Origin: a virus
DNA length: 64,000 bases
Strand: one strand, 5' to 3'
Virus record (IMG/VR): IMGVR_UViG_3300021964_006878
Location: 1 to 64,000 of that record
Made by a program: the position numbers and the translations under genes. Below, piece by piece: positions 522 to 57,830 of the stretch (position 1 is the first letter of the stretch; every line of letters begins with the position of its first letter). The notes beneath the pieces are model-generated. The model made no database searches, had not been told where the DNA came from, and was given only the letters and a program-made list of their open reading frames with translations.

Positions 522-2396
522 TTAAGTTGCGGAGAATGACATAGCGGTGATAGAATCACCTGAGTCTAATCGCCATCGGATTAGAATTCTATTGTTGCTA
601 TCGTTTGATGATGATTCAGTTCCAAATACAGAAGTAAATGTTCCGCTAGAACCACTCATATTTCCACCAGAGGCACATCCAGGTTCTGCTGATGTTGGAA
701 TACCAGAACCACGATATGCTGTGAACATACTTGCCCAACCATTTGTTCCAGACAAGGATGAAGTCCATGCAGAGTTATCAGGTAGGCAGACCCAACATCC
801 TCCATAAGAACCAGTCACCGAAATATTGAACTGGGAGACATTTGAGCGAATCAGTTCCATCTGAAAGTATTGTGCTCCACTTCTACCGGAAGAATAATCA
901 GGACCAGCAGGAAGATACCCAGTTGAATAATTGGTTTGGTCATGTCTTAACACTGCTCCTCTCACAACCGCTTCATAGGAAGCAACTTGAGTGCTTGAGG
1001 ACCAGGCAGTATAAACCGGAGTTGGGTTGTCTCCAGTCGCTCCTGCATTGACCCTATCGGCATTACCAGACCCAGTACCGAGTGAAGTAATTAAAATGTT
1101 ATCTTCATCAATTTCATTGGTTCGGGCAGTGGTGCCCATAATATTGATATTTGTACTATAACTTATTCTTTGATTATTATGACTTCCGTAAGGAGTAGAG
1201 CAATCATATCTTGAGAAGTGATTTGATGTAAGTGTGAGGTGCAAATCTCTAACTGTATTTGTGATTACACAGTCAGTACCTGTTCCAACACCAAAGTTTC
1301 TGACTGGTGGGTTTGCTCCACCGAAGTCGGTATATGTTTTATCTCCTGGATTATTGAATCCAGATGTTTGACCGTCTGATGTTACGAATGTGTGATTACT
1401 ATACATATCACCAGTCGCATTAGTGACCGTCATTGTATAAGTGAAGTTATTTGCTGCTGCTTCTGTATAGTGAGGAACACCAGAAGAATAGTTAAGTGTT
1501 GGACTACTAGGTGCAGTGACTCCACTGAATGAAATTACTGGTGCTGAAACTGTGCTTGGATCTTCATACCAGAAAACATCTGCTGTATTATTTGACCCTT
1601 GATTGATATGTGCCTTATTATATCCGTCTGGTGATGCAGCATCAATTAATCTTGCGTCATAGACTTCATAAAATAGTGAAGTGATGCCTACATTTCTTGA
1701 AGAATCTGCTGCATCCTTATCATTTGCAATTTGCAATGCATCGTATGTTCCATTATCAGACTTGACTGCATAAAGTCCGAATGAGATATTGAGTGTTGTT
1801 GTTCCGACTCCAACTGCATTCACAAAACCGGTAACTGTTCCAGATTCACCAGGACCATATTCAGTGATGTAATTAGTCGTGACTGTGCTGTCAGTATTTC
1901 TCGTATATTGAGTTCCTGCTACCGGTGCTGCTCCTCCAGTATTATTGGTTGGTGTGAATCCTGCACAAAGTCTACCTACACCTGCTGTCCCAGTCAAAGA
2001 TAACGAAACACCATCAATATCATCTGGTTGCGGTGGAACAAGTTTTCCTAAAATATAGTTAAGTTCATCCACTGAGTCGTCAATTTTATGATTTGCTGCT
2101 GGTGTATATGCTCCTCCTCTAAAACTACCAGAGGTTGGAGTGCCGAGAGTTAAATTTCCACCTTCTCCATGAAAATTAGTTGCTGTTACAACCCCCACAT
2201 ATTGTATTGCTCCCCCACCAAATGACTCCTTCCAAGGAGTTAAAAGCGTAATGGTGGTTCCAATTCCAACTCCACCTGTATCTCTTTCTGCAAACAGGTG
2301 ACCATCAAAAAAGTTAATTGCTAATTCGCCTTTCTGTAATTCGTCGGGACGTTTCCCGGTCACAGAAGACCTCTTTAACCTAAAAGGTGTTGCCAT
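522..2396 (-). CDS. Tail fibre/virion structural protein (624 aa, G/S/T-rich)
   Basis: N-terminus MATPFRLKRSSVTGKRP..GELAINFFDG is typical of cyanomyophage fibre proteins; beta-rich body. Confidence 0.65.
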   Translation of the reverse strand: MATPFRLKRSSVTGKRPDELQKGELAINFFDGHLFAERDTGGVGIGTTITLLTPWKESFGGGAIQYVGVVTATNFHGEGGNLTLGTPTSGSFRGGAYTPAANHKIDDSVDELNYILGKLVPPQPDDIDGVSLSLTGTAGVGRLCAGFTPTNNTGGAAPVAGTQYTRNTDSTVTTNYITEYGPGESGTVTGFVNAVGVGTTTLNISFGLYAVKSDNGTYDALQIANDKDAADSSRNVGITSLFYEVYDARLIDAASPDGYNKAHINQGSNNTADVFWYEDPSTVSAPVISFSGVTAPSSPTLNYSSGVPHYTEAAANNFTYTMTVTNATGDMYSNHTFVTSDGQTSGFNNPGDKTYTDFGGANPPVRNFGVGTGTDCVITNTVRDLHLTLTSNHFSRYDCSTPYGSHNNQRISYSTNINIMGTTARTNEIDEDNILITSLGTGSGNADRVNAGATGDNPTPVYTAWSSSTQVASYEAVVRGAVLRHDQTNYSTGYLPAGPDYSSGRSGAQYFQMELIRSNVSQFNISVTGSYGGCWVCLPDNSAWTSSLSGTNGWASMFTAYRGSGIPTSAEPGCASGGNMSGSSGTFTSVFGTESSSNDSNNRILIRWRLDSGDSITAMSFSAT

Positions 2397-2679: not shown

Positions 2680-4851
2680 ATGGCATCGCAAAGAAAGATT
2701 TTCAAAAGAGTTGGTTTACGAAGAGATAAGAATTTCTCAGACCTTTCTGATTCAACACTTGCATTGAACAATTTGCTTGATACACTTGTTGATAGTGTTG
2801 ATGCGACTTTTATATCTGAAGATTTAGACGCAATTCGTAATATTTTTTCATCAGGACTAACTCAAAGTGAGTATAGGGAGTTTATTGGTAGTGCTGTAGA
2901 AGAAACTGATATTAATGGTATCAATGTTGGAGTTGTGCCTAGAATTACGTATCAGAATCGTTTAGATAAATTTCAAGTTTCTTCTGGAACTCCTAGACTT
3001 AATGGTGGTAATGGTCTTACCGCCAAATATTTTAACGCAGACCAAGTTCAAAATACCACAGATGTTTTTACTGGGATTACCACTGGAGGTTCAATTCCAA
3101 GTGATACTTTTTGGGAAGCTGGAAACTTTGAATATACAGCAAAAATCCACCCACAATCAGTAAATACTGCTGGTGGAGTTCAATGGGAAGGTTTCTTCGT
3201 TCCAGCACAAACCGGTGTTTACAGATTTACTTCAAGTGGTAGTTTAGGGTTTACTGCTGATTTTCAAACCGAAGGATATACGTCTGGTATCAACACATAT
3301 ACAGAATATTCTAGAGTTCTACTATCCAAATCAACTACTGGGACAACTGAGGGTACTACATTAGTTGTAATTCCAGCAGGAGATGTGAAAAATATTGGAA
3401 TTGGTATGACTGCATCTGGTTCTGGAATTCGTACAGGTTCTATAGTAAGTGGAATAGGAAACACTGGAATAATTACACTTGAAAACCCAGATGGAGACCC
3501 GATTACATCTATTGCTACTGGTGCTATTAATTTTACTAGAGAAGCAGGAACTTCGGTTTCAAGTAATTTTGATACCTATACATTAGAAAAGTTTGAACAA
3601 TATAGAATTAGATTTAGATTCTTCGTTCCGGTTGGAGTTCCTAGTTTAGGAGTTGATAAAGCAATGGCATTTCTTTTTCTACCTCCAGGTGCTACTAGCA
3701 GTTCATATCTACGATATAATAACTTATATTCATTAGATTATGATTTTTCAGAACCAGCAAAGGGTAGTTTTAATAAATTCCTAGACCAATCTATATTATT
3801 TGGCGGTGGTCTTATTGGTGGAACAAGTAGTAGTGGATATGTAAAAGTTAAATCAACTAAAAAAATTGATATTAAATATGTCCCCAAAACAAACTATGCG
3901 GGAATCTTAAGAAAAACTTTCACAGCAAGTTGGAGTACAGGATCTAAAGTTATATCATTGAGTGATACTACAAATATTGAAATTGGAAATTATCTTTTTG
4001 CATCGGGATTAACATCAAATGTAAATATACCGGTTCGTGTGATTGACATTGTAATCAATGATTTTATTATTATTGACACTGCAACAACTGGTAGTGGTTC
4101 AAATGCTACTATTAATGCTATCAATCATCGTGGTTTTGTTAAAAGAGTTACAGCAAGTTCTAGTGCTGGAACAGTTACTATTAGTAATGGAAATACCAAT
4201 GACCTTAAAAGTAAACAACTTGCAATATGGGATGGGGTTTCACAATATACTGGAATTACTACTAATGGTTCTTCCAATCAAGTAACTCTTTCCCCATCTT
4301 CGGGATTTGGTACTAGAGCACTTTACTTTTATGAATCTAGAGGTCTGATTGATAAAGCATTAAATTCTTTCTGTGTTCCTACTCAGACGCAATGTATATT
4401 AGTAACTACCGCAGCAACAGCAGGTGATACAACACTAACAGTTGAAAGTGTTGCAGGAGCAATCGCACAAGGTTGGGTGATTCAAGGATTCCCATTTGCA
4501 TCAGGAACAACAATTTCTTCAATTGTAGGCAATACAATTACTCTAAGCACAGGAATTACTAAAAACATTAATCCTGGTTCTAATTTTACTGTTACAAATT
4601 CTGGAGGTGATAGATCACTATGCTGTCCTCCAACAGATACATCACCACCATTTAACCCAACTGAAGAAGGATTAGAAACAACCACATCATCACCAAACCT
4701 TGAAATTGTTGGTGGTAATGTTAAATTTGATGCACTTAATGCAACTATAAATCCATCTAAAATATCATTATACTCTTCTACAGACAAATCTAATAATAGA
4801 TTGCAACTAAAAGGTGGTGACGGAATCACATACAATATCTTATGTGTCTAA
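2680..4851 (+). CDS. Virion/fibre protein with PA14-like carbohydrate-binding domain (723 aa)
   Basis: GNGLTAKYFN...GGVQWEGFFVPAQTGVYRF is PA14-like; late-type CTAAATA upstream; inverted relative to its neighbours. Confidence 0.65.
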   Translation: MASQRKIFKRVGLRRDKNFSDLSDSTLALNNLLDTLVDSVDATFISEDLDAIRNIFSSGLTQSEYREFIGSAVEETDINGINVGVVPRITYQNRLDKFQVSSGTPRLNGGNGLTAKYFNADQVQNTTDVFTGITTGGSIPSDTFWEAGNFEYTAKIHPQSVNTAGGVQWEGFFVPAQTGVYRFTSSGSLGFTADFQTEGYTSGINTYTEYSRVLLSKSTTGTTEGTTLVVIPAGDVKNIGIGMTASGSGIRTGSIVSGIGNTGIITLENPDGDPITSIATGAINFTREAGTSVSSNFDTYTLEKFEQYRIRFRFFVPVGVPSLGVDKAMAFLFLPPGATSSSYLRYNNLYSLDYDFSEPAKGSFNKFLDQSILFGGGLIGGTSSSGYVKVKSTKKIDIKYVPKTNYAGILRKTFTASWSTGSKVISLSDTTNIEIGNYLFASGLTSNVNIPVRVIDIVINDFIIIDTATTGSGSNATINAINHRGFVKRVTASSSAGTVTISNGNTNDLKSKQLAIWDGVSQYTGITTNGSSNQVTLSPSSGFGTRALYFYESRGLIDKALNSFCVPTQTQCILVTTAATAGDTTLTVESVAGAIAQGWVIQGFPFASGTTISSIVGNTITLSTGITKNINPGSNFTVTNSGGDRSLCCPPTDTSPPFNPTEEGLETTTSSPNLEIVGGNVKFDALNATINPSKISLYSSTDKSNNRLQLKGGDGITYNILCV

Positions 4852-6141: not shown

Positions 6142-8616
6142 TTAATCGTGAGTGACGTTCCAACCTTTTGATCTCAAAATTGTGATAAATTCTAAACCAA
6201 TTTCACTAGGTGGTCCATTTCCACGAAGATTTATTGTAACTCCTCTACGATTTACGGATACCCAGTTATCGTATAAATCTTCAAGTAATTGGTCAATTGC
6301 TTGTTGTGATAAAGAATTATCAGATAAATCTATATATCTGATGTAATATAATTCCTTGAATGCTCCTGTCTTATATCCAGTAAATTGATTATTAGACATA
6401 ATCAAATAATACAATCTAGGACATTCACTAAGGTCAGGAATTGCTCCAGTAATCTGATTATTATGAACGTAAAGGTATCTTAAAGCAGGTAAGTTTTCAA
6501 ATTTACCAATTCCGGTAAACTTATTATTTTGTAAAGCTAGATAATAAAGTCTTGCAAGATTTTTATAAGTTGGAATTGCATTACTAAGTTGATTATTGTT
6601 AAATTGTACAAAATATATATTTTGATTTGCTGCTAGGTTTGGTACTGACCCAGTAAAAGCATTTTGAAACAATCTAAGGTATGTTAGATTGGGATTACCA
6701 GCAAAACTTGGAAGAGTTCCACTAGTTCTACCATAAGAACGATACCACAAATAATAAAGAGCACTAACATCTACAAAAGCATCAGGGTGAATTGCAGAAG
6801 TCAATAAATTTCCAGAATCTATATAAAGACCACTTAAATTTGTTGCAAATTGGAAAGTGTCTCTTGGGATTACAAAACTTTCATTTCCATTTGGAGCACC
6901 TCCCTTGATTCCAGTATATCGTAAGTCTAGACTTGTTAGATTGGGATTAGTAAATACTGGGAATCTGCTTCCTGATATACCACCTGCGGCATATAATCCA
7001 ATAGTTTTTAACTCACTGCATCCATCAAATCTATAATCAATACTATTTCCTCCCTCTAAATCAACTAGTTTTCCAAGACTTCTACCATATGATGCACTAA
7101 AAGATTCTAATGAATTTTTTCCCTGAGTTCCAGTAGGAAACGGTAATCCAGTTGACCCTATGTTTATAGATTTAATAACATTATTGCCCGGAGCGATTCC
7201 AAAAGTACTACTACCGAGATAATAATTACTAGCAAGGTTTAGTGTAACAAGATTTTCTAATTGATTTACATTGAATCTTGTTGTACCATCTGCAGTAAGG
7301 TCAATTGATCTAAAGTCATTTCTACGAATACTATAAGTTTCTACTGTAGACGCAACATTGGGAATAGTATTACTAGAATCTGTGGAGTCGGGATGGAAAT
7401 ATGCTCCACCACCTCTACCAACATCGAATACAGTCAACTGCTGAAATCTATCTGCAAATATATTTTGTGTAATAGAACCATAAAAAGTTCCTTCAAGATA
7501 TAACTGTTTAACTCCAGTAGGAATCTTGTCTAAGATGGTATTTGTTGTTGTTCCACTAGGTGTGGAAGTACTCTGTAATTTTCTTTCACTTTCAACTTCA
7601 CTCAAATAGAATGGATTTCTTCGTAAAAGTAATTCATTTATATTTGGTGCAACGAAATTAATATCAGGAAACTCTCTTAATGCATTATAAGAAAGTTCAA
7701 TTCTTGTTGCTGCTTGGAACTTGACTGGGGGGAGACTTCTAATATTTGCAGACGTAATACTAATTTCACGAATTCTATCGGGATTATAATAAAATTGTAT
7801 AAATCTTTCTCTAGAGATTGAAGATCTATACCTTATTGAAGATGTTGTTCCGCCTATATTTTTAAAATTTGAGTATCTGTTTGCGTTTCCTGTCTCAACA
7901 ATCTTCCAACTTGCAGGAGTATCATTAACTAAATTTGTTAATGTGATTGTTGCATTTAGATTCCTAAAGAAACCTTTGAATATAACAGGAATACCCTTCA
8001 TCGCATAAAGAGTTACTGTCTGACCACCAATGGTTGTTTGTACTTTATGAGTTGGAAATTCTGAAGGAAATTCTTTTTCCTGTGGTACAATAGAAGTCTG
8101 AAGTCTTGGTCCTGCAACAGTTGCTGTTCCGAATACTAATGAACCACCACTACGAATTCCAAGTCTTGCACCATATGATATTGGAGATGTAGATAGAACT
8201 GGACTTGCAGAAGAACTCCATGCACTAGTTCTTGAAGTTGAAATGTCTGCAATTTTAATGGTAGCACCACTACCAGTCCCATCAACATACCTATATCTAA
8301 TTGCATTACCACTCAATGAACCATTAATTTTTAAATTACCGAACAGAGAACCATCTGTTCCTGCTCTTTCTAAAAGTAAACCATTAAATTGACCCGAATC
8401 ACGATTTAATCTATCTAAAGTCTTATGGAGAGGGTCAACTAATCGTGAAAAACTAATCCAATCATTACGTGTTGCACCAGCATCACTTGAACCAAGAATT
8501 ATTTCTAGGTCTAAGGGTGGTAAATTGATATTTTGTAAAGATAAATTTTTATCCCTAACATCAGCAAAAGAACTGAGTACATTAAGACCAAATAATTTTG
8601 GATTTTTGATTGCCAT
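6142..8616 (-). CDS. Leucine-rich-repeat protein (824 aa), putative receptor-binding/virion protein
   Basis: Repeated LxxLxLxxNxxxGxIP units (LRYLYVHNNQITGAIPDL, LTYLRLFQNAFTGSVPNL) and a C-cap ending LRSKGWNV. Confidence 0.8.
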   Translation of the reverse strand: MAIKNPKLFGLNVLSSFADVRDKNLSLQNINLPPLDLEIILGSSDAGATRNDWISFSRLVDPLHKTLDRLNRDSGQFNGLLLERAGTDGSLFGNLKINGSLSGNAIRYRYVDGTGSGATIKIADISTSRTSAWSSSASPVLSTSPISYGARLGIRSGGSLVFGTATVAGPRLQTSIVPQEKEFPSEFPTHKVQTTIGGQTVTLYAMKGIPVIFKGFFRNLNATITLTNLVNDTPASWKIVETGNANRYSNFKNIGGTTSSIRYRSSISRERFIQFYYNPDRIREISITSANIRSLPPVKFQAATRIELSYNALREFPDINFVAPNINELLLRRNPFYLSEVESERKLQSTSTPSGTTTNTILDKIPTGVKQLYLEGTFYGSITQNIFADRFQQLTVFDVGRGGGAYFHPDSTDSSNTIPNVASTVETYSIRRNDFRSIDLTADGTTRFNVNQLENLVTLNLASNYYLGSSTFGIAPGNNVIKSINIGSTGLPFPTGTQGKNSLESFSASYGRSLGKLVDLEGGNSIDYRFDGCSELKTIGLYAAGGISGSRFPVFTNPNLTSLDLRYTGIKGGAPNGNESFVIPRDTFQFATNLSGLYIDSGNLLTSAIHPDAFVDVSALYYLWYRSYGRTSGTLPSFAGNPNLTYLRLFQNAFTGSVPNLAANQNIYFVQFNNNQLSNAIPTYKNLARLYYLALQNNKFTGIGKFENLPALRYLYVHNNQITGAIPDLSECPRLYYLIMSNNQFTGYKTGAFKELYYIRYIDLSDNSLSQQAIDQLLEDLYDNWVSVNRRGVTINLRGNGPPSEIGLEFITILRSKGWNVTHD

Positions 8617-23667: not shown

Positions 23668-23741
23668 TACGAGTGGTGGGAGTCGAACCCACACTGTCGA
23701 AATTTTAAGTTTCGTTTCTCTGCCTGTTGGAATACACTCGC
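23668..23741 (-). tRNA. trnL: tRNA-Leu(UAA), short variable loop, no encoded CCA
   Basis: Acceptor GCGAGUG/CACUCGU; anticodon arm CGAAA-CUUAAAA-UUUCG; T-arm GUGGG-UUCGACU-CCCAC; discriminator A. Confidence 0.92.
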
Positions 23742-47125: not shown

Positions 47126-47154
47126 AAAAAAAGAGAGGATAGTCAATCCTCTCT
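47126..47154 (-). terminator. Intrinsic terminator of the DUF4278 transcript
   Basis: AGAGAGGAT-TGACT-ATCCTCTCTTTTTT. Confidence 0.8.
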
Positions 47155-47172: not shown

Positions 47173-47340
47173 TCACTTAGTATAAGTACGACCACGATAG
47201 CAGAATGTACCGTGCGACTCTTTGTTTTCTACACAACGAGTAGAATACTCAACACCACGATATGAAGTGTGAAGAATTTGTGCGTTATGCAGTGCAGATG
47301 CTTTGTTGATCTGCTGCTTTACCATTTGAAGGGTGTTCAT
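47173..47340 (-). CDS. DUF4278-family small protein (GS-inactivating-factor IF17-like), 55 aa
   Basis: MNTLQMVKQQINKASALHNAQILHTSYRGVEY...GTFCYRGRTYTK (double YRG motif); SD AGGAG; downstream of glnA aptamers. Confidence 0.8.
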   Translation of the reverse strand: MNTLQMVKQQINKASALHNAQILHTSYRGVEYSTRCVENKESHGTFCYRGRTYTK

Positions 47341-47373
47341 GTTGTTACTCCTAAAGTAGTTGGATTTTTAGGT

Positions 47374-47561
47374 CCGTTCCTTTAGTCGTTTGCGTCCCAA
47401 TACCACTCACATTCTGGTGCTGAGTCCTTAAGAGTCTCAATCAATTCAATCTTAACTATATTACTAAGATTAGAATTTTTCTCAATCTTCAGCATAATAG
47501 CATCAGTTTGAGTACAGCTGAGTGTTGTATAGAATAATAGTTCTAACATGGGATGAACGAT
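47374..47561 (-). ncRNA. glnA-type glutamine riboswitch aptamer 2 (P2 region contains an ORF)
   Basis: AUCGUUCAUCCCA...UGGGACGCAAACGACUAAAGGAACGG; P1 CGUUC/GAACG, P2 UCCCA/UGGGA. Confidence 0.75.
47382..47549 (-). CDS. 55-aa ORF embedded in the riboswitch aptamer
   Basis: MLELLFYTTLSCTQTDAIMLKIEKNSNLSNIVKIELIETLKDSAPECEWYWDAND; uninterrupted frame. Confidence 0.7.
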   Translation of the reverse strand: MLELLFYTTLSCTQTDAIMLKIEKNSNLSNIVKIELIETLKDSAPECEWYWDAND

Positions 47562-47644
47562 TAGAGTGATTTTTTCCAGCGACGAATAGAAGTATGAGAT
47601 GTTTGATAATCTTCTGCAAGTTTTCTAATAGGCAGTGTAGCAAA
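47561..47644 (-). pseudogene. HTH-like coding remnant between the two aptamers
   Basis: Startless frame FATLPIRKLAEDYQTSHTSIRRWKKSL*, preceded by an in-frame TGA. Confidence 0.5.
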
Positions 47645-47657
47645 TCATTCTAATTCT

Positions 47658-47724
47658 CCGTTCCGCGACTTACTTGCGTCTCCTAATCAAGTCCAAATTT
47701 GTTCCAAATTAGGAGATGAACGAT
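47658..47724 (-). ncRNA. glnA-type glutamine riboswitch aptamer 1
   Basis: AUCGUUCAUCUCCUAAU...AUUAGGAGACGCAAGUAAGUCGCGGAACGG; 9-bp P2. Confidence 0.82.
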
Positions 47725-47730
47725 AGGTCT

Positions 47731-47759
47731 ATTATAGACCTCATACATTATTTAGTCAA
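47731..47759 (-). promoter_or_regulatory. Sigma70 promoter for the riboswitch transcript
   Basis: TTGACT-N17-TATAAT; predicted +1 near 47724, the first base of aptamer 1; -10 box sits in the palindrome GGTCTATAATAGACC. Confidence 0.8.
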
Positions 47760-57679: not shown

Positions 57680-57750
57680 AAAGTAAGACCATCAGGGAAT
57701 GGTGGAGTTACTATTTCCCAGACACCCTAAGTCTGGGATATGAAAGACTG
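57680..57750 (-). ncRNA. PhotoRC-II-like RNA motif in the psbA 5' UTR
   Basis: UCUUUCAUA-UCCCAGAC-UUAGGGU-GUCUGGGA-AAUAGUAA...ACCAU-UCCCUG-AUGGU-CUUAC; loop-loop AGGG/CCCU complementarity. Confidence 0.8.
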
Positions 57751-57830
57751 TTGTTTAGACACGCTGTTTAGTCTTGGTAAGGCGTGTTACAAATGGTTAA
57801 GAAATGTGTTGGTTCCGTAACCTCTCGACT

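Follow-up and report, generated by a model that had tools for sequence, protein, structure and literature searches.

A cyanophage leader in which two glutamine aptamer cores probably share one helix

Overview of the locus

The 64,000-nucleotide stretch of DNA analyzed here (the window; positions 1 to 64,000 of the 85-kb IMG/VR virus record IMGVR_UViG_3300021964_006878) is part of the genome of a T4-like cyanophage, with a PhotoRC-II RNA, a tRNA gene, thyX and talC all present. On its minus strand lies a glutamine riboswitch-type element within a self-contained unit that comprises a promoter, a leader of ~385 nucleotides (nt), a gene for a protein of 55 amino acids (aa) and an intrinsic terminator (Table 1). 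The leader holds two aptamer-like units, of which unit 1 (minus strand, 47722-47658) reads CGUUC-A-P2a-CGCAAGUA-AGUCG-CG-GAACG-G and unit 2 (minus strand, 47559-47374) reads CGUUC-A-UCCCA...UGGGA-CGCAAA-CGACU-AAAG-GAACG-G, with P1, P2 and P3 denoting the helices of each three-way junction and J the strands that join them. Here, we describe a comparative analysis of this leader, which is probably one composite glutamine sensor, with two aptamer cores that share one helix, the P3 stem opening into a permuted second junction, and with a switch that masks the Shine-Dalgarno (SD) sequence of the downstream gene.

Results

Elements of the two units

Both units lack their own P3 hairpin, as a preliminary description of the locus had noticed; in the Rfam alignment of unit 1, 4 nt stand at the place of the consensus 10-nt P3 hairpin. 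Unit 1 has the full 5' junction strand of the consensus (CG-N-AAGUA) and a stunted 3' strand (CG), and unit 2 has a stunted 5' strand (CGCAAA) and a full 3' strand ((G/A)AAG-GAACG). AGUCG (47670-47666) and CGACU (47388-47384) are exact complements on the minus strand, and the other elements listed in that description were likewise located where it had placed them. Read across AGUCG/CGACU, the outer parts match the glutamine-I consensus CGUUCA-P2-CG(G/C)AAGUA-P3-GAAGGAACG, with CGCAAGUA as the J2/3 of the window. The enclosed part is a circular permutation of the same core, in which a GAACG-loop-CGUUC hairpin (P1') is followed by A, P2b and CGCAAA, P3 closes the junction and CG returns to GAACG. 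The two units had been called interlocked, but the fold is nested, not knotted.

The E-loop of the outer junction, assigned by sequence, places AGUA (47674-47671) opposite AAA in the window, and ~60% of relatives have GAA there. The roles given to the J2/3 nucleotides in Table 1 were taken from the glutamine-I and glutamine-II structures (PMC6698751). In the inner unit, the nucleotides that contact glutamine in these solved structures (PMC6698751) are all present (47559-47554, 47394-47392 and 47664-47658), so that the inner junction has the C1:G pair, the G2:C pair with the G of CGC as a triple, the C:G linchpin and the G preceding GAACG. The Rfam Glutamine model (RF01739) detects unit 1 alone in the window, with 24.8 bits, the gathering score being 35; unit 2 goes unseen because its P2b contains ~150 nt.

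Table 1. Features of the glutamine-type leader and its transcription unit, in order of transcription (window coordinates)
Feature	Coordinates	Strand	Remarks
Sigma-70-type promoter, TTGACT-17-TATAAT	47731..47759	-	11/12 consensus matches
Outer P1 5' strand CGUUC, then A 47717	47718..47722	-	pairs with 47379-47375; invariant in 131 unique homologues; partner assigned from the swap at the inner P1' pair
P2a hairpin of outer aptamer (UCUCCUAAU...AUUAGGAGA)	47679..47716	-	closing pairs covary strongly (U-A/C-G/G-C/A-U)
Outer J2/3 CGCAAGUA; CGC, groove strand with linchpin C; AGUA, E-loop 5' half	47671..47678	-	Rfam alignment
Shared P3 5' strand AGUCG	47666..47670	-	complement of 47388-47384; covariation
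Inner J3/1 CG (47665-47664) and inner P1' strand GAACG (47663-47659)	47659..47665	-	G 47658 is the inner linchpin G
Decayed homing-endonuclease gene in inner P1' loop	47561..47648	-	start and 7 codons, stop, intact 3' end of ~85 nt
Inner P1' strand CGUUC (47559-47555), then A 47554	47554..47559	-	
P2b, UCCCA 47553-47549 with UGGGA 47399-47395, enclosing most of the embedded open reading frame (ORF)	47395..47553	-	closing pairs covary
Embedded 55-aa ORF, phrog_504	47382..47549	-	AUG in P2b 5' strand; stop UAA spans last base of P3 and E-loop
Inner J2/3 CGCAAA; CGC, groove strand, without E-loop	47389..47394	-	
Shared P3 3' strand CGACU	47384..47388	-	covariation
Outer J3/1 AAAG (47383-47380; E-loop 3' half and triple G), GAACG 47379-47375, linchpin G 47374	47374..47383	-	Rfam consensus GAAGGAACG
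CUUUAG 47356-47351, partner of CUAAAG 47385-47380; overlaps SD AGGAG 47352-47348	47348..47356	-	
Regulated gene, 55-aa protein with two YRG motifs, phrog_545	47173..47340	-	weak DUF4278 (IF17-like) match
Intrinsic terminator closing the unit	47132..47154	-	

Collection of homologues

By blastn, the region was matched in 414 GenBank phage records, with homology beginning exactly at the CGUUC of unit 2. In phages S-RIM44 and Syn33, 3-4 nt separate the units (...GGAACG-GAG(G/C)-CGUUCAUCCCAUG...). IMG/VR loci were gathered in three ways, namely a search with the downstream protein, which is unbiased with respect to the RNA, and two patterns that left the tested positions free. The resulting sets comprise 131 unique class-1 sequences, 216 unique nested elements overall and 103 distinct class-1 sequences aligned with MAFFT.

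The nested element is found in nearly every sampled leader of this gene family, and the whole inner core is kept in 50 of the 52 unique leaders retrieved by the downstream protein alone. The inner J2/3 is CGCA(A/C)A in all but one of the 216 unique sequences, most of its letters having been fixed by the search pattern. A strict diagnostic pattern yielded two matches in 401 sampled cyanobacterial genomes, both attributable to chance, and no true case, so that the nested design looks phage-borne among the genomes searched. Applied across general genome contigs, the diagnostic pattern gave, among the matches listed, chance ones in unrelated bacteria and the full element at no locus examined, a result that is uninformative on cellular genomes.

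Pairing of the four P1 strands

In the nested arrangement, the CGUUC of unit 1 pairs with the GAACG of unit 2 (outer P1) and the GAACG of unit 1 with the CGUUC of unit 2 (inner P1'); side by side, each unit would close its own P1. Among the 131 unique class-1 sequences, the junction-proximal inner P1' pair, between the 47659-47663 strand and position 47555, takes the form G-C in 117 and C-G in 14, with no one-sided change. Because the outer strands are unchanged in all 14 C-G sequences while the inner pair is swapped, separately folded units would carry C·C and G·G mismatches in these 14. Across the alignment of 103 sequences, the nested scheme of the preliminary description (outer P1, inner P1', shared P3 and a P2b that carries the ORF) leaves 99.2% of cells paired, with 9 doubly changed pairs and a covariation score of 0.109, compared to 0.042 in shuffles, and pairing drops to 32-54% when the partners are slid by one column. 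The side-by-side model, by contrast, leaves 13 unpaired cells at each P1 helix (13 C·C and 13 G·G). The C-G form of the inner pair occurs in at least six backgrounds of P2a, loop and ORF, and several of its nearest neighbors are G-C forms. This pair is equivalent to C5:G36 of glutamine-II, one of two helix pairs that Huang et al. found not to be highly conserved, the invariant pairs being those that contact the ligand (PMC6698751).

All four closing pairs of P2a undergo two-sided changes, and those of P2b covary (C-G/U-A/A-U/U·G) across ~150 nt that include the ORF.

The shared P3 helix

By itself, a 5-nt complement is at the level of chance, above which it is raised by covariation in homologues. 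Among the 131 class-1 sequences, P3 pair 1 is A-U in 129 and G·U in 2; pair 2 is G-C in 127, G·U in 3 and A-U in 1; pair 3 is U-A in 129 and U·G in 2; pair 4 is C-G in all 131; and pair 5 is G-C in 128 and A-U in 3. There are thus zero non-canonical cells, and G-C has changed to A-U at two positions, with wobbles as the only intermediates. In the wider set, AGUCA/UGACU is found in four contexts and AAUCG/CGAUU in two, the G·U intermediate AGUCG/CGAUU is also present, and the strands lie 50-280 nt apart in these homologues.

Other clades carry matching P3 strands of different sequence (GGACGG/CCGCCC and GGACGACG/CGCCGCCC). A group with an 8-bp P3 combines AGCCGACU or AGCCGACA with AGCCGACU, AGUUGACU or UGCCGACU, and its pair 8 alternates between U-A and A-U with one orphan exception. 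In classes 2 and 3 (for example, contigs L222, L204, L220 and L210), where P3 has 6-8 bp, position 3 is A·C, C·A or A·A, and position 6 is also mismatched in the 8-bp forms; these conserved mismatches, symmetric about the helix, may mark contacts from each junction. A mini-hairpin of 2 bp within each class-2 unit (AG-CCGA-CU) was considered and rejected for class 2b, in which it would give A·A and U·U, the cross-unit pairs being A-U. The P3 that RF01739 requires of the outer unit is accordingly present as a long-range helix and not as a hairpin.

The helix that masks the Shine-Dalgarno sequence

CU(A/G)AAG, which consists of the last two bases of P3, the E-loop strand and the G before GAACG, is complementary to CUU(U/C)AG, whose AG opens the SD AGGAG. 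The variable pair of this anti-SD helix is A-U in 53, G-C in 51 and G·U in 27 of the 131 unique sequences; A·C is absent, although ~21 such cases would be expected if the columns were independent. On the alignment, 99.7% of the cells of the helix are paired, with 36 doubly changed cells (A-U 48, G-C 36, G·U 19, mismatch 0), and the helix is present in the ligand-free minimum free energy (MFE) fold of the window. Of the two pairings previously suggested as expression platform, CUAAAG/CUUUAG is supported by this covariation; CCUAAA (47372-47367) occurs in only part of the family, without covariation. Because the anti-SD helix is incompatible with P3 and the E-loop, folding stabilized by glutamine should free the SD, from which we infer an ON switch. 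Both published glutamine riboswitch types behave as ON switches in vivo (PMC6212724, PMC6698751).

Compact, single and variant forms

Compact natural forms with a short P2b measure 81-92 nt, and for most of them (five of the eight listed) the ViennaRNA MFE structure is the exact nested structure. In the Infernal alignment to RF01739, the compact L090 element (3880-3961, minus strand, 81 nt) is a single aptamer whose P3, AGU...ACU, contains a 39-nt insert; its score of 41.0 bits exceeds the gathering score of 35, and the class-3 L220 scores 33.3 bits with a 54-nt insertion. One viral contig with a compact nested element, L222, also bears a manA RNA (1640-1839, minus strand, 160.9 bits).

Four contigs (L304, L234, L275 and L309) carry single canonical glutamine-I aptamers with their own P3 hairpin before longer members of the YRG-motif family, so nested and single designs coexist among cyanophages. 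The two that were scored both exceed the Rfam cut-off (L234, 46.2 bits; L304, 42.7 bits). In L304, upstream of the same gene family, P3 is a closed hairpin of the same sequence as the shared helix (AGUC-UUUAG-GACU), which points to an origin of the nested design by insertion into the P3 loop.

A deletion variant in L040 (plus strand, ~1260-1500) has a single unit (CGUUCAUCCCAUG...CGCAAACGACUAAAGGAACGG), in which CGACU is left without a partner; the deletion apparently arose by recombination between two CGUUCAUCCC repeats.

Published annotations appear to contain unrecognized nested cases. The annotated "glnA" match of phage S-CREM1, compared by length only, spans 99 nt, about the size of a compact nested element, and the 2010 glnA seed alignment includes two GOS scaffolds of which only unit 1 is aligned, the P3 columns holding loose letters.

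The embedded ORF and the inner loop

The embedded ORF is intact in 125 of the 131 unique homologues, in which it encodes 49-66 aa and varies mostly at third codon positions; searched against Pfam, it gave only one meaningless match below threshold. Inner loops that begin with GAG (the 47656-47659 region) create a GGAG 10-11 nt before the embedded AUG. Such loops are found in 131 of the 176 elements with a P2b of at least 100 nt, nearly all of which have an AUG at its start, and in none of the 40 compact ones (Fisher p ~5e-20, not corrected for phylogeny), an association that is largely a difference between clades. The inner hairpin loop may be the SD of the embedded gene, which hints that the inner unit also gates this gene.

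ORFs that look related by eye from their translations are located in P2a of phage Sf-CH5 and of contigs L204, L206, L210 and L224 and, on our reading of these translations, would belong to the family of the window ORF. The ORFs in P2 stem-loops (the window; L002:552-752; P2a of L204, L206, L210 and L224) have a hydrophobic N-terminus and two cysteines. P2-lodged ORFs have their start codon in the 5' arm and their stop codon at or just past the 3' arm.

The inner P1' loop of the window harbors the remnant of a homing-endonuclease gene, of which a complete copy of 573 nt occupies the same site in Synechococcus phage Sf-CH5, as determined by alignment. In RNA libraries, relatives are represented by contigs in which 47559/60 is joined directly to 47656; these contigs show only that a form without the 95-96-nt insert occurs there, and do not bear on the transcript start or on whether there is a single transcript. 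A hairpin loop is a tolerant insertion site, which fits the nested model, and a linker between separate aptamers would be equally tolerant.

Transcription unit and neighboring features

The promoter is kept at the equivalent place in most homologues, and the transcript should start a few bases upstream of the outer P1, as predicted from its position. The -10 region (47725-47741, minus strand) lies in a palindrome, AGGTCTAT/ATAGACCT, with GTA just before it. We take this palindrome to recall, loosely, an NtcA-type site that overlaps the promoter, as at the repressed gifA and gifB genes.

The match of the 55-aa downstream protein to DUF4278 (E = 6.7e-4) falls short of the Pfam cut-off. The cyanobacterial inactivating factor of glutamine synthetase, IF17, has this domain and is a classic cargo of glutamine riboswitches (PMC6212724). 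Rfam matches to SIB_RNA, the L20 leader and ceN30 near the terminator were dismissed as chance, their scores being far under the thresholds. Elsewhere in the window, the PhotoRC-II RNA (57703-57799, minus strand, 65.6 bits) and the tRNA gene (23668-23741, minus strand, 53.3 bits) are ordinary in T4-like cyanophages.

Discussion

Covariation supports the nested pairing scheme, P3, P2b and the anti-SD helix, and we consider it probable that the leader is a single composite glutamine sensor. Under the mechanism that we propose, the outer core would be an ordinary glutamine-I three-way junction, formed by P1, P2a, an E-loop (AGUA with AAA or GAA) and a P3 that has no terminal loop and would open into a circularly permuted second three-way junction. 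In the ligand-free state, CUAAAG would pair with CUUUAG, which overlaps the SD of the downstream DUF4278/IF17-like gene; glutamine would stabilize P1, the E-loop and P3, free the SD and turn translation on.

With somewhat less assurance, we favor glutamine binding by the inner pocket too, because the nucleotides predicted to contact the ligand are kept while their surroundings vary and because the core persists in the leaders retrieved without reference to the RNA; the missing E-loop and the very short P1' loop disfavor it. Cooperativity between the two sites is a tentative suggestion, physically plausible because the stem is shared. Doubtful, as a whole, is the most ambitious version, in which both pockets would bind glutamine and be coupled through P3 in a steep, cooperative two-site sensor, ~81 nt long in its smallest form, that in the ORF-bearing forms would regulate two genes in opposite directions. 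If true, no known cooperative riboswitch would be more compact, and the nesting of a circularly permuted aptamer in its twin would have its first natural example; in the ORF forms, glutamine would conceal the SD (GGAG, inner loop) and AUG (P2b) of the embedded gene and at the same time expose the SD of the IF17-like gene downstream.

A search of the inner unit for a turn element to position the 3' strand was negative: CG alone joins P3 to GAACG and AAA alone follows CGC, with neither an E-loop nor a type-II loop. Several observations weigh against the composite sensor. Inner P1' is capped by 3-4 nt in most relatives, and its first G may face a steric obstacle to forming the linchpin pair. Only 9-10 nt separate the two sides of the inner P1' swap, which can therefore be inherited together; because sites this close can co-travel by recombination, the number of independent swap events may be small, and the swap may even be a single ancient event spread by recombination. 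Class-1 P3 is nearly invariant (~95% AGUCG/CGACU), and its 3' strand coincides with the last codons of the embedded ORF (AAC GAC UAA/UGA), where the C-to-U changes seen are synonymous. In class 2, the P3 8-mers are identical in both units (AGCCGACU) rather than visibly complementary, and they form a weak isolated duplex of -1.3 kcal/mol with two conserved A·C mismatches. Contig L159 (plus strand, ~6430-6860) has a third unit: its units 2 and 3 are a nested pair (AGUCA/UGACU), and its unit 1 carries the class-2 P3 strand AGCCGACU without a partner, which looks like the product of recombination. Finally, the outer aptamer of the window can close only after ~350 nt have been made, and only when no ribosomes occupy the embedded ORF.

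In a different account of the switch, the four P1 strands would alternate between side-by-side and nested pairings as the RNA is transcribed or translated, translation of the embedded ORF, and not glutamine alone, would decide the fold, and ribosomes stopping within CU(A/G)AAG would free the downstream SD by translational coupling. The stop codon of the embedded ORF does lie within the anti-SD partner and GAG loops accompany long P2b stems, although the latter association, largely a matter of clade, is the one given above without phylogenetic correction. As the compact forms that lack an ORF retain both the nested design and the anti-SD helix, the core mechanism does not require the ORF, and we regard this account as possible but on the unlikely side.

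A one-site switch appears less likely still. Here, a single glutamine-I aptamer would have a large insertion in P3, and the inner junction would serve as a scaffold, or be left over from an aptamer duplication, and would not bind glutamine. This is how the Rfam model treats the compact forms, and it would account for the absence of an inner E-loop and the brevity of the P1' loop, as well as for leaders in which the inner core is broken (CAACC in L058, CGAAAA in L179) or unit 1 is lost (L040). A scaffold, however, would not be expected to hold CGUUCA, CGCA(A/C)A and GGAACGG fixed while P2a, P2b, P3 and the loop vary, including in the compact forms without an ORF, and variation within inner P1' is confined to the pair reported as not highly conserved in glutamine-II (PMC6698751).

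Two side-by-side aptamers, each with its own P1 and no P3, acting independently as a "pseudo-cooperative" tandem with AGUCG/CGACU as a fortuitous match or loose tertiary contact, would agree with the treatment of tandem glutamine riboswitches as independent doublets in the literature (PMC9481103), with the 2010 glnA alignment, where unit 1 of sequences of this kind is entered as an aptamer in its own right, and with the glutamine-II-like core kept in both units, of which unit 1 is made first and could fold alone, but are very improbable in view of the mismatches in both conventional P1 helices of 13 of the 103 aligned sequences, in which the nested helix is perfect, the covariation of P3 over 50-280 nt, the location of the E-loop halves AGUA and GAA in different units and the topological strain that we would expect if AGUCG led back to its own P1 through CG alone.

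If the composite sensor is accepted, its design principle is the insertion of an aptamer, circularly permuted, into a helix of its twin, with a common stem and one expression platform. Among T4-like cyanophages, this design is widespread. In a 2017 survey, only two glutamine aptamers had been reported from cyanophages (PMC5473149), and our text search of the literature, which did not cover the founding study of Ames & Breaker 2011 (PMC3127080), found no description of a nested or permuted glutamine riboswitch. The natural versions of 81-92 nt are small enough for crystallography, isothermal titration calorimetry and Hill analysis, making cooperativity through a shared helix directly testable. 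Furthermore, a stem-loop of a riboswitch here hosts a conserved protein-coding gene and, in the window, a hairpin loop tolerates a homing-endonuclease gene. These findings suggest that host glutamine is sensed by the phage as a cue for when to produce an IF17-like protein, possibly directed at glutamine synthetase.

Comparison with known systems

The outer unit has every consensus element of glutamine-I (the glnA motif, RF01739; crystal structure by Ren et al. 2015, as described in PMC6698751), namely the CGUUC/GAACG P1, A, P2, CG(N)AAGUA, E-loop, P3, GAAG and linchpin, as well as the DUF4278/IF17-like gene context and the expected translational ON switch. It differs in that P3 is the entry to a second three-way junction, in that the linchpin is C:G, as in glutamine-II, instead of G:C, and in that Rfam matches the window below its cut-off, at unit 1 only. 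Features that the inner unit has in common with glutamine-II (the Downstream-peptide motif, RF01704) are CGUUCA, CGCA, GGAACGG, a C:G linchpin and the absence of an E-loop. Separate strands can come together to build the binding helix (PMC6698751); in glutamine-II it is a pseudoknot with a hairpin loop, whereas in the inner unit it would be a plain hairpin, the permuted P1, in a junction closed by the outer P3.

Tandem glutamine riboswitches, of which 157 doublets and 4 triplets are recorded as consecutive, independent and pseudo-cooperative (PMC9481103), likewise place two glutamine-type cores in one leader before one gene, and some of the doublets recorded there may be of the nested type. 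In a true tandem, each aptamer closes on itself and is complete alone. Neither unit described here does so, given the absence of an own P3, the E-loop halves split between units and the P1 mismatches noted above; the two cores are instead nested and share a helix and an expression platform.

Circularly permuted natural RNAs include hammerhead ribozymes of types I-III and the twister permutations, in which, as here, one core is closed at different helices. Those are stand-alone ribozymes, and we know of no riboswitch aptamer that sits, permuted, within a helix of an unpermuted copy of itself, nor did text searches of the literature reveal one. The tandem glycine riboswitch consists of consecutive complete aptamers that touch via tertiary contacts. 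It resembles the cyanophage leader in having two homologous amino-acid aptamers, physically coupled, with one expression platform; in the leader, coupling would instead use a shared coaxial helix, and one of the two aptamers is circularly permuted.

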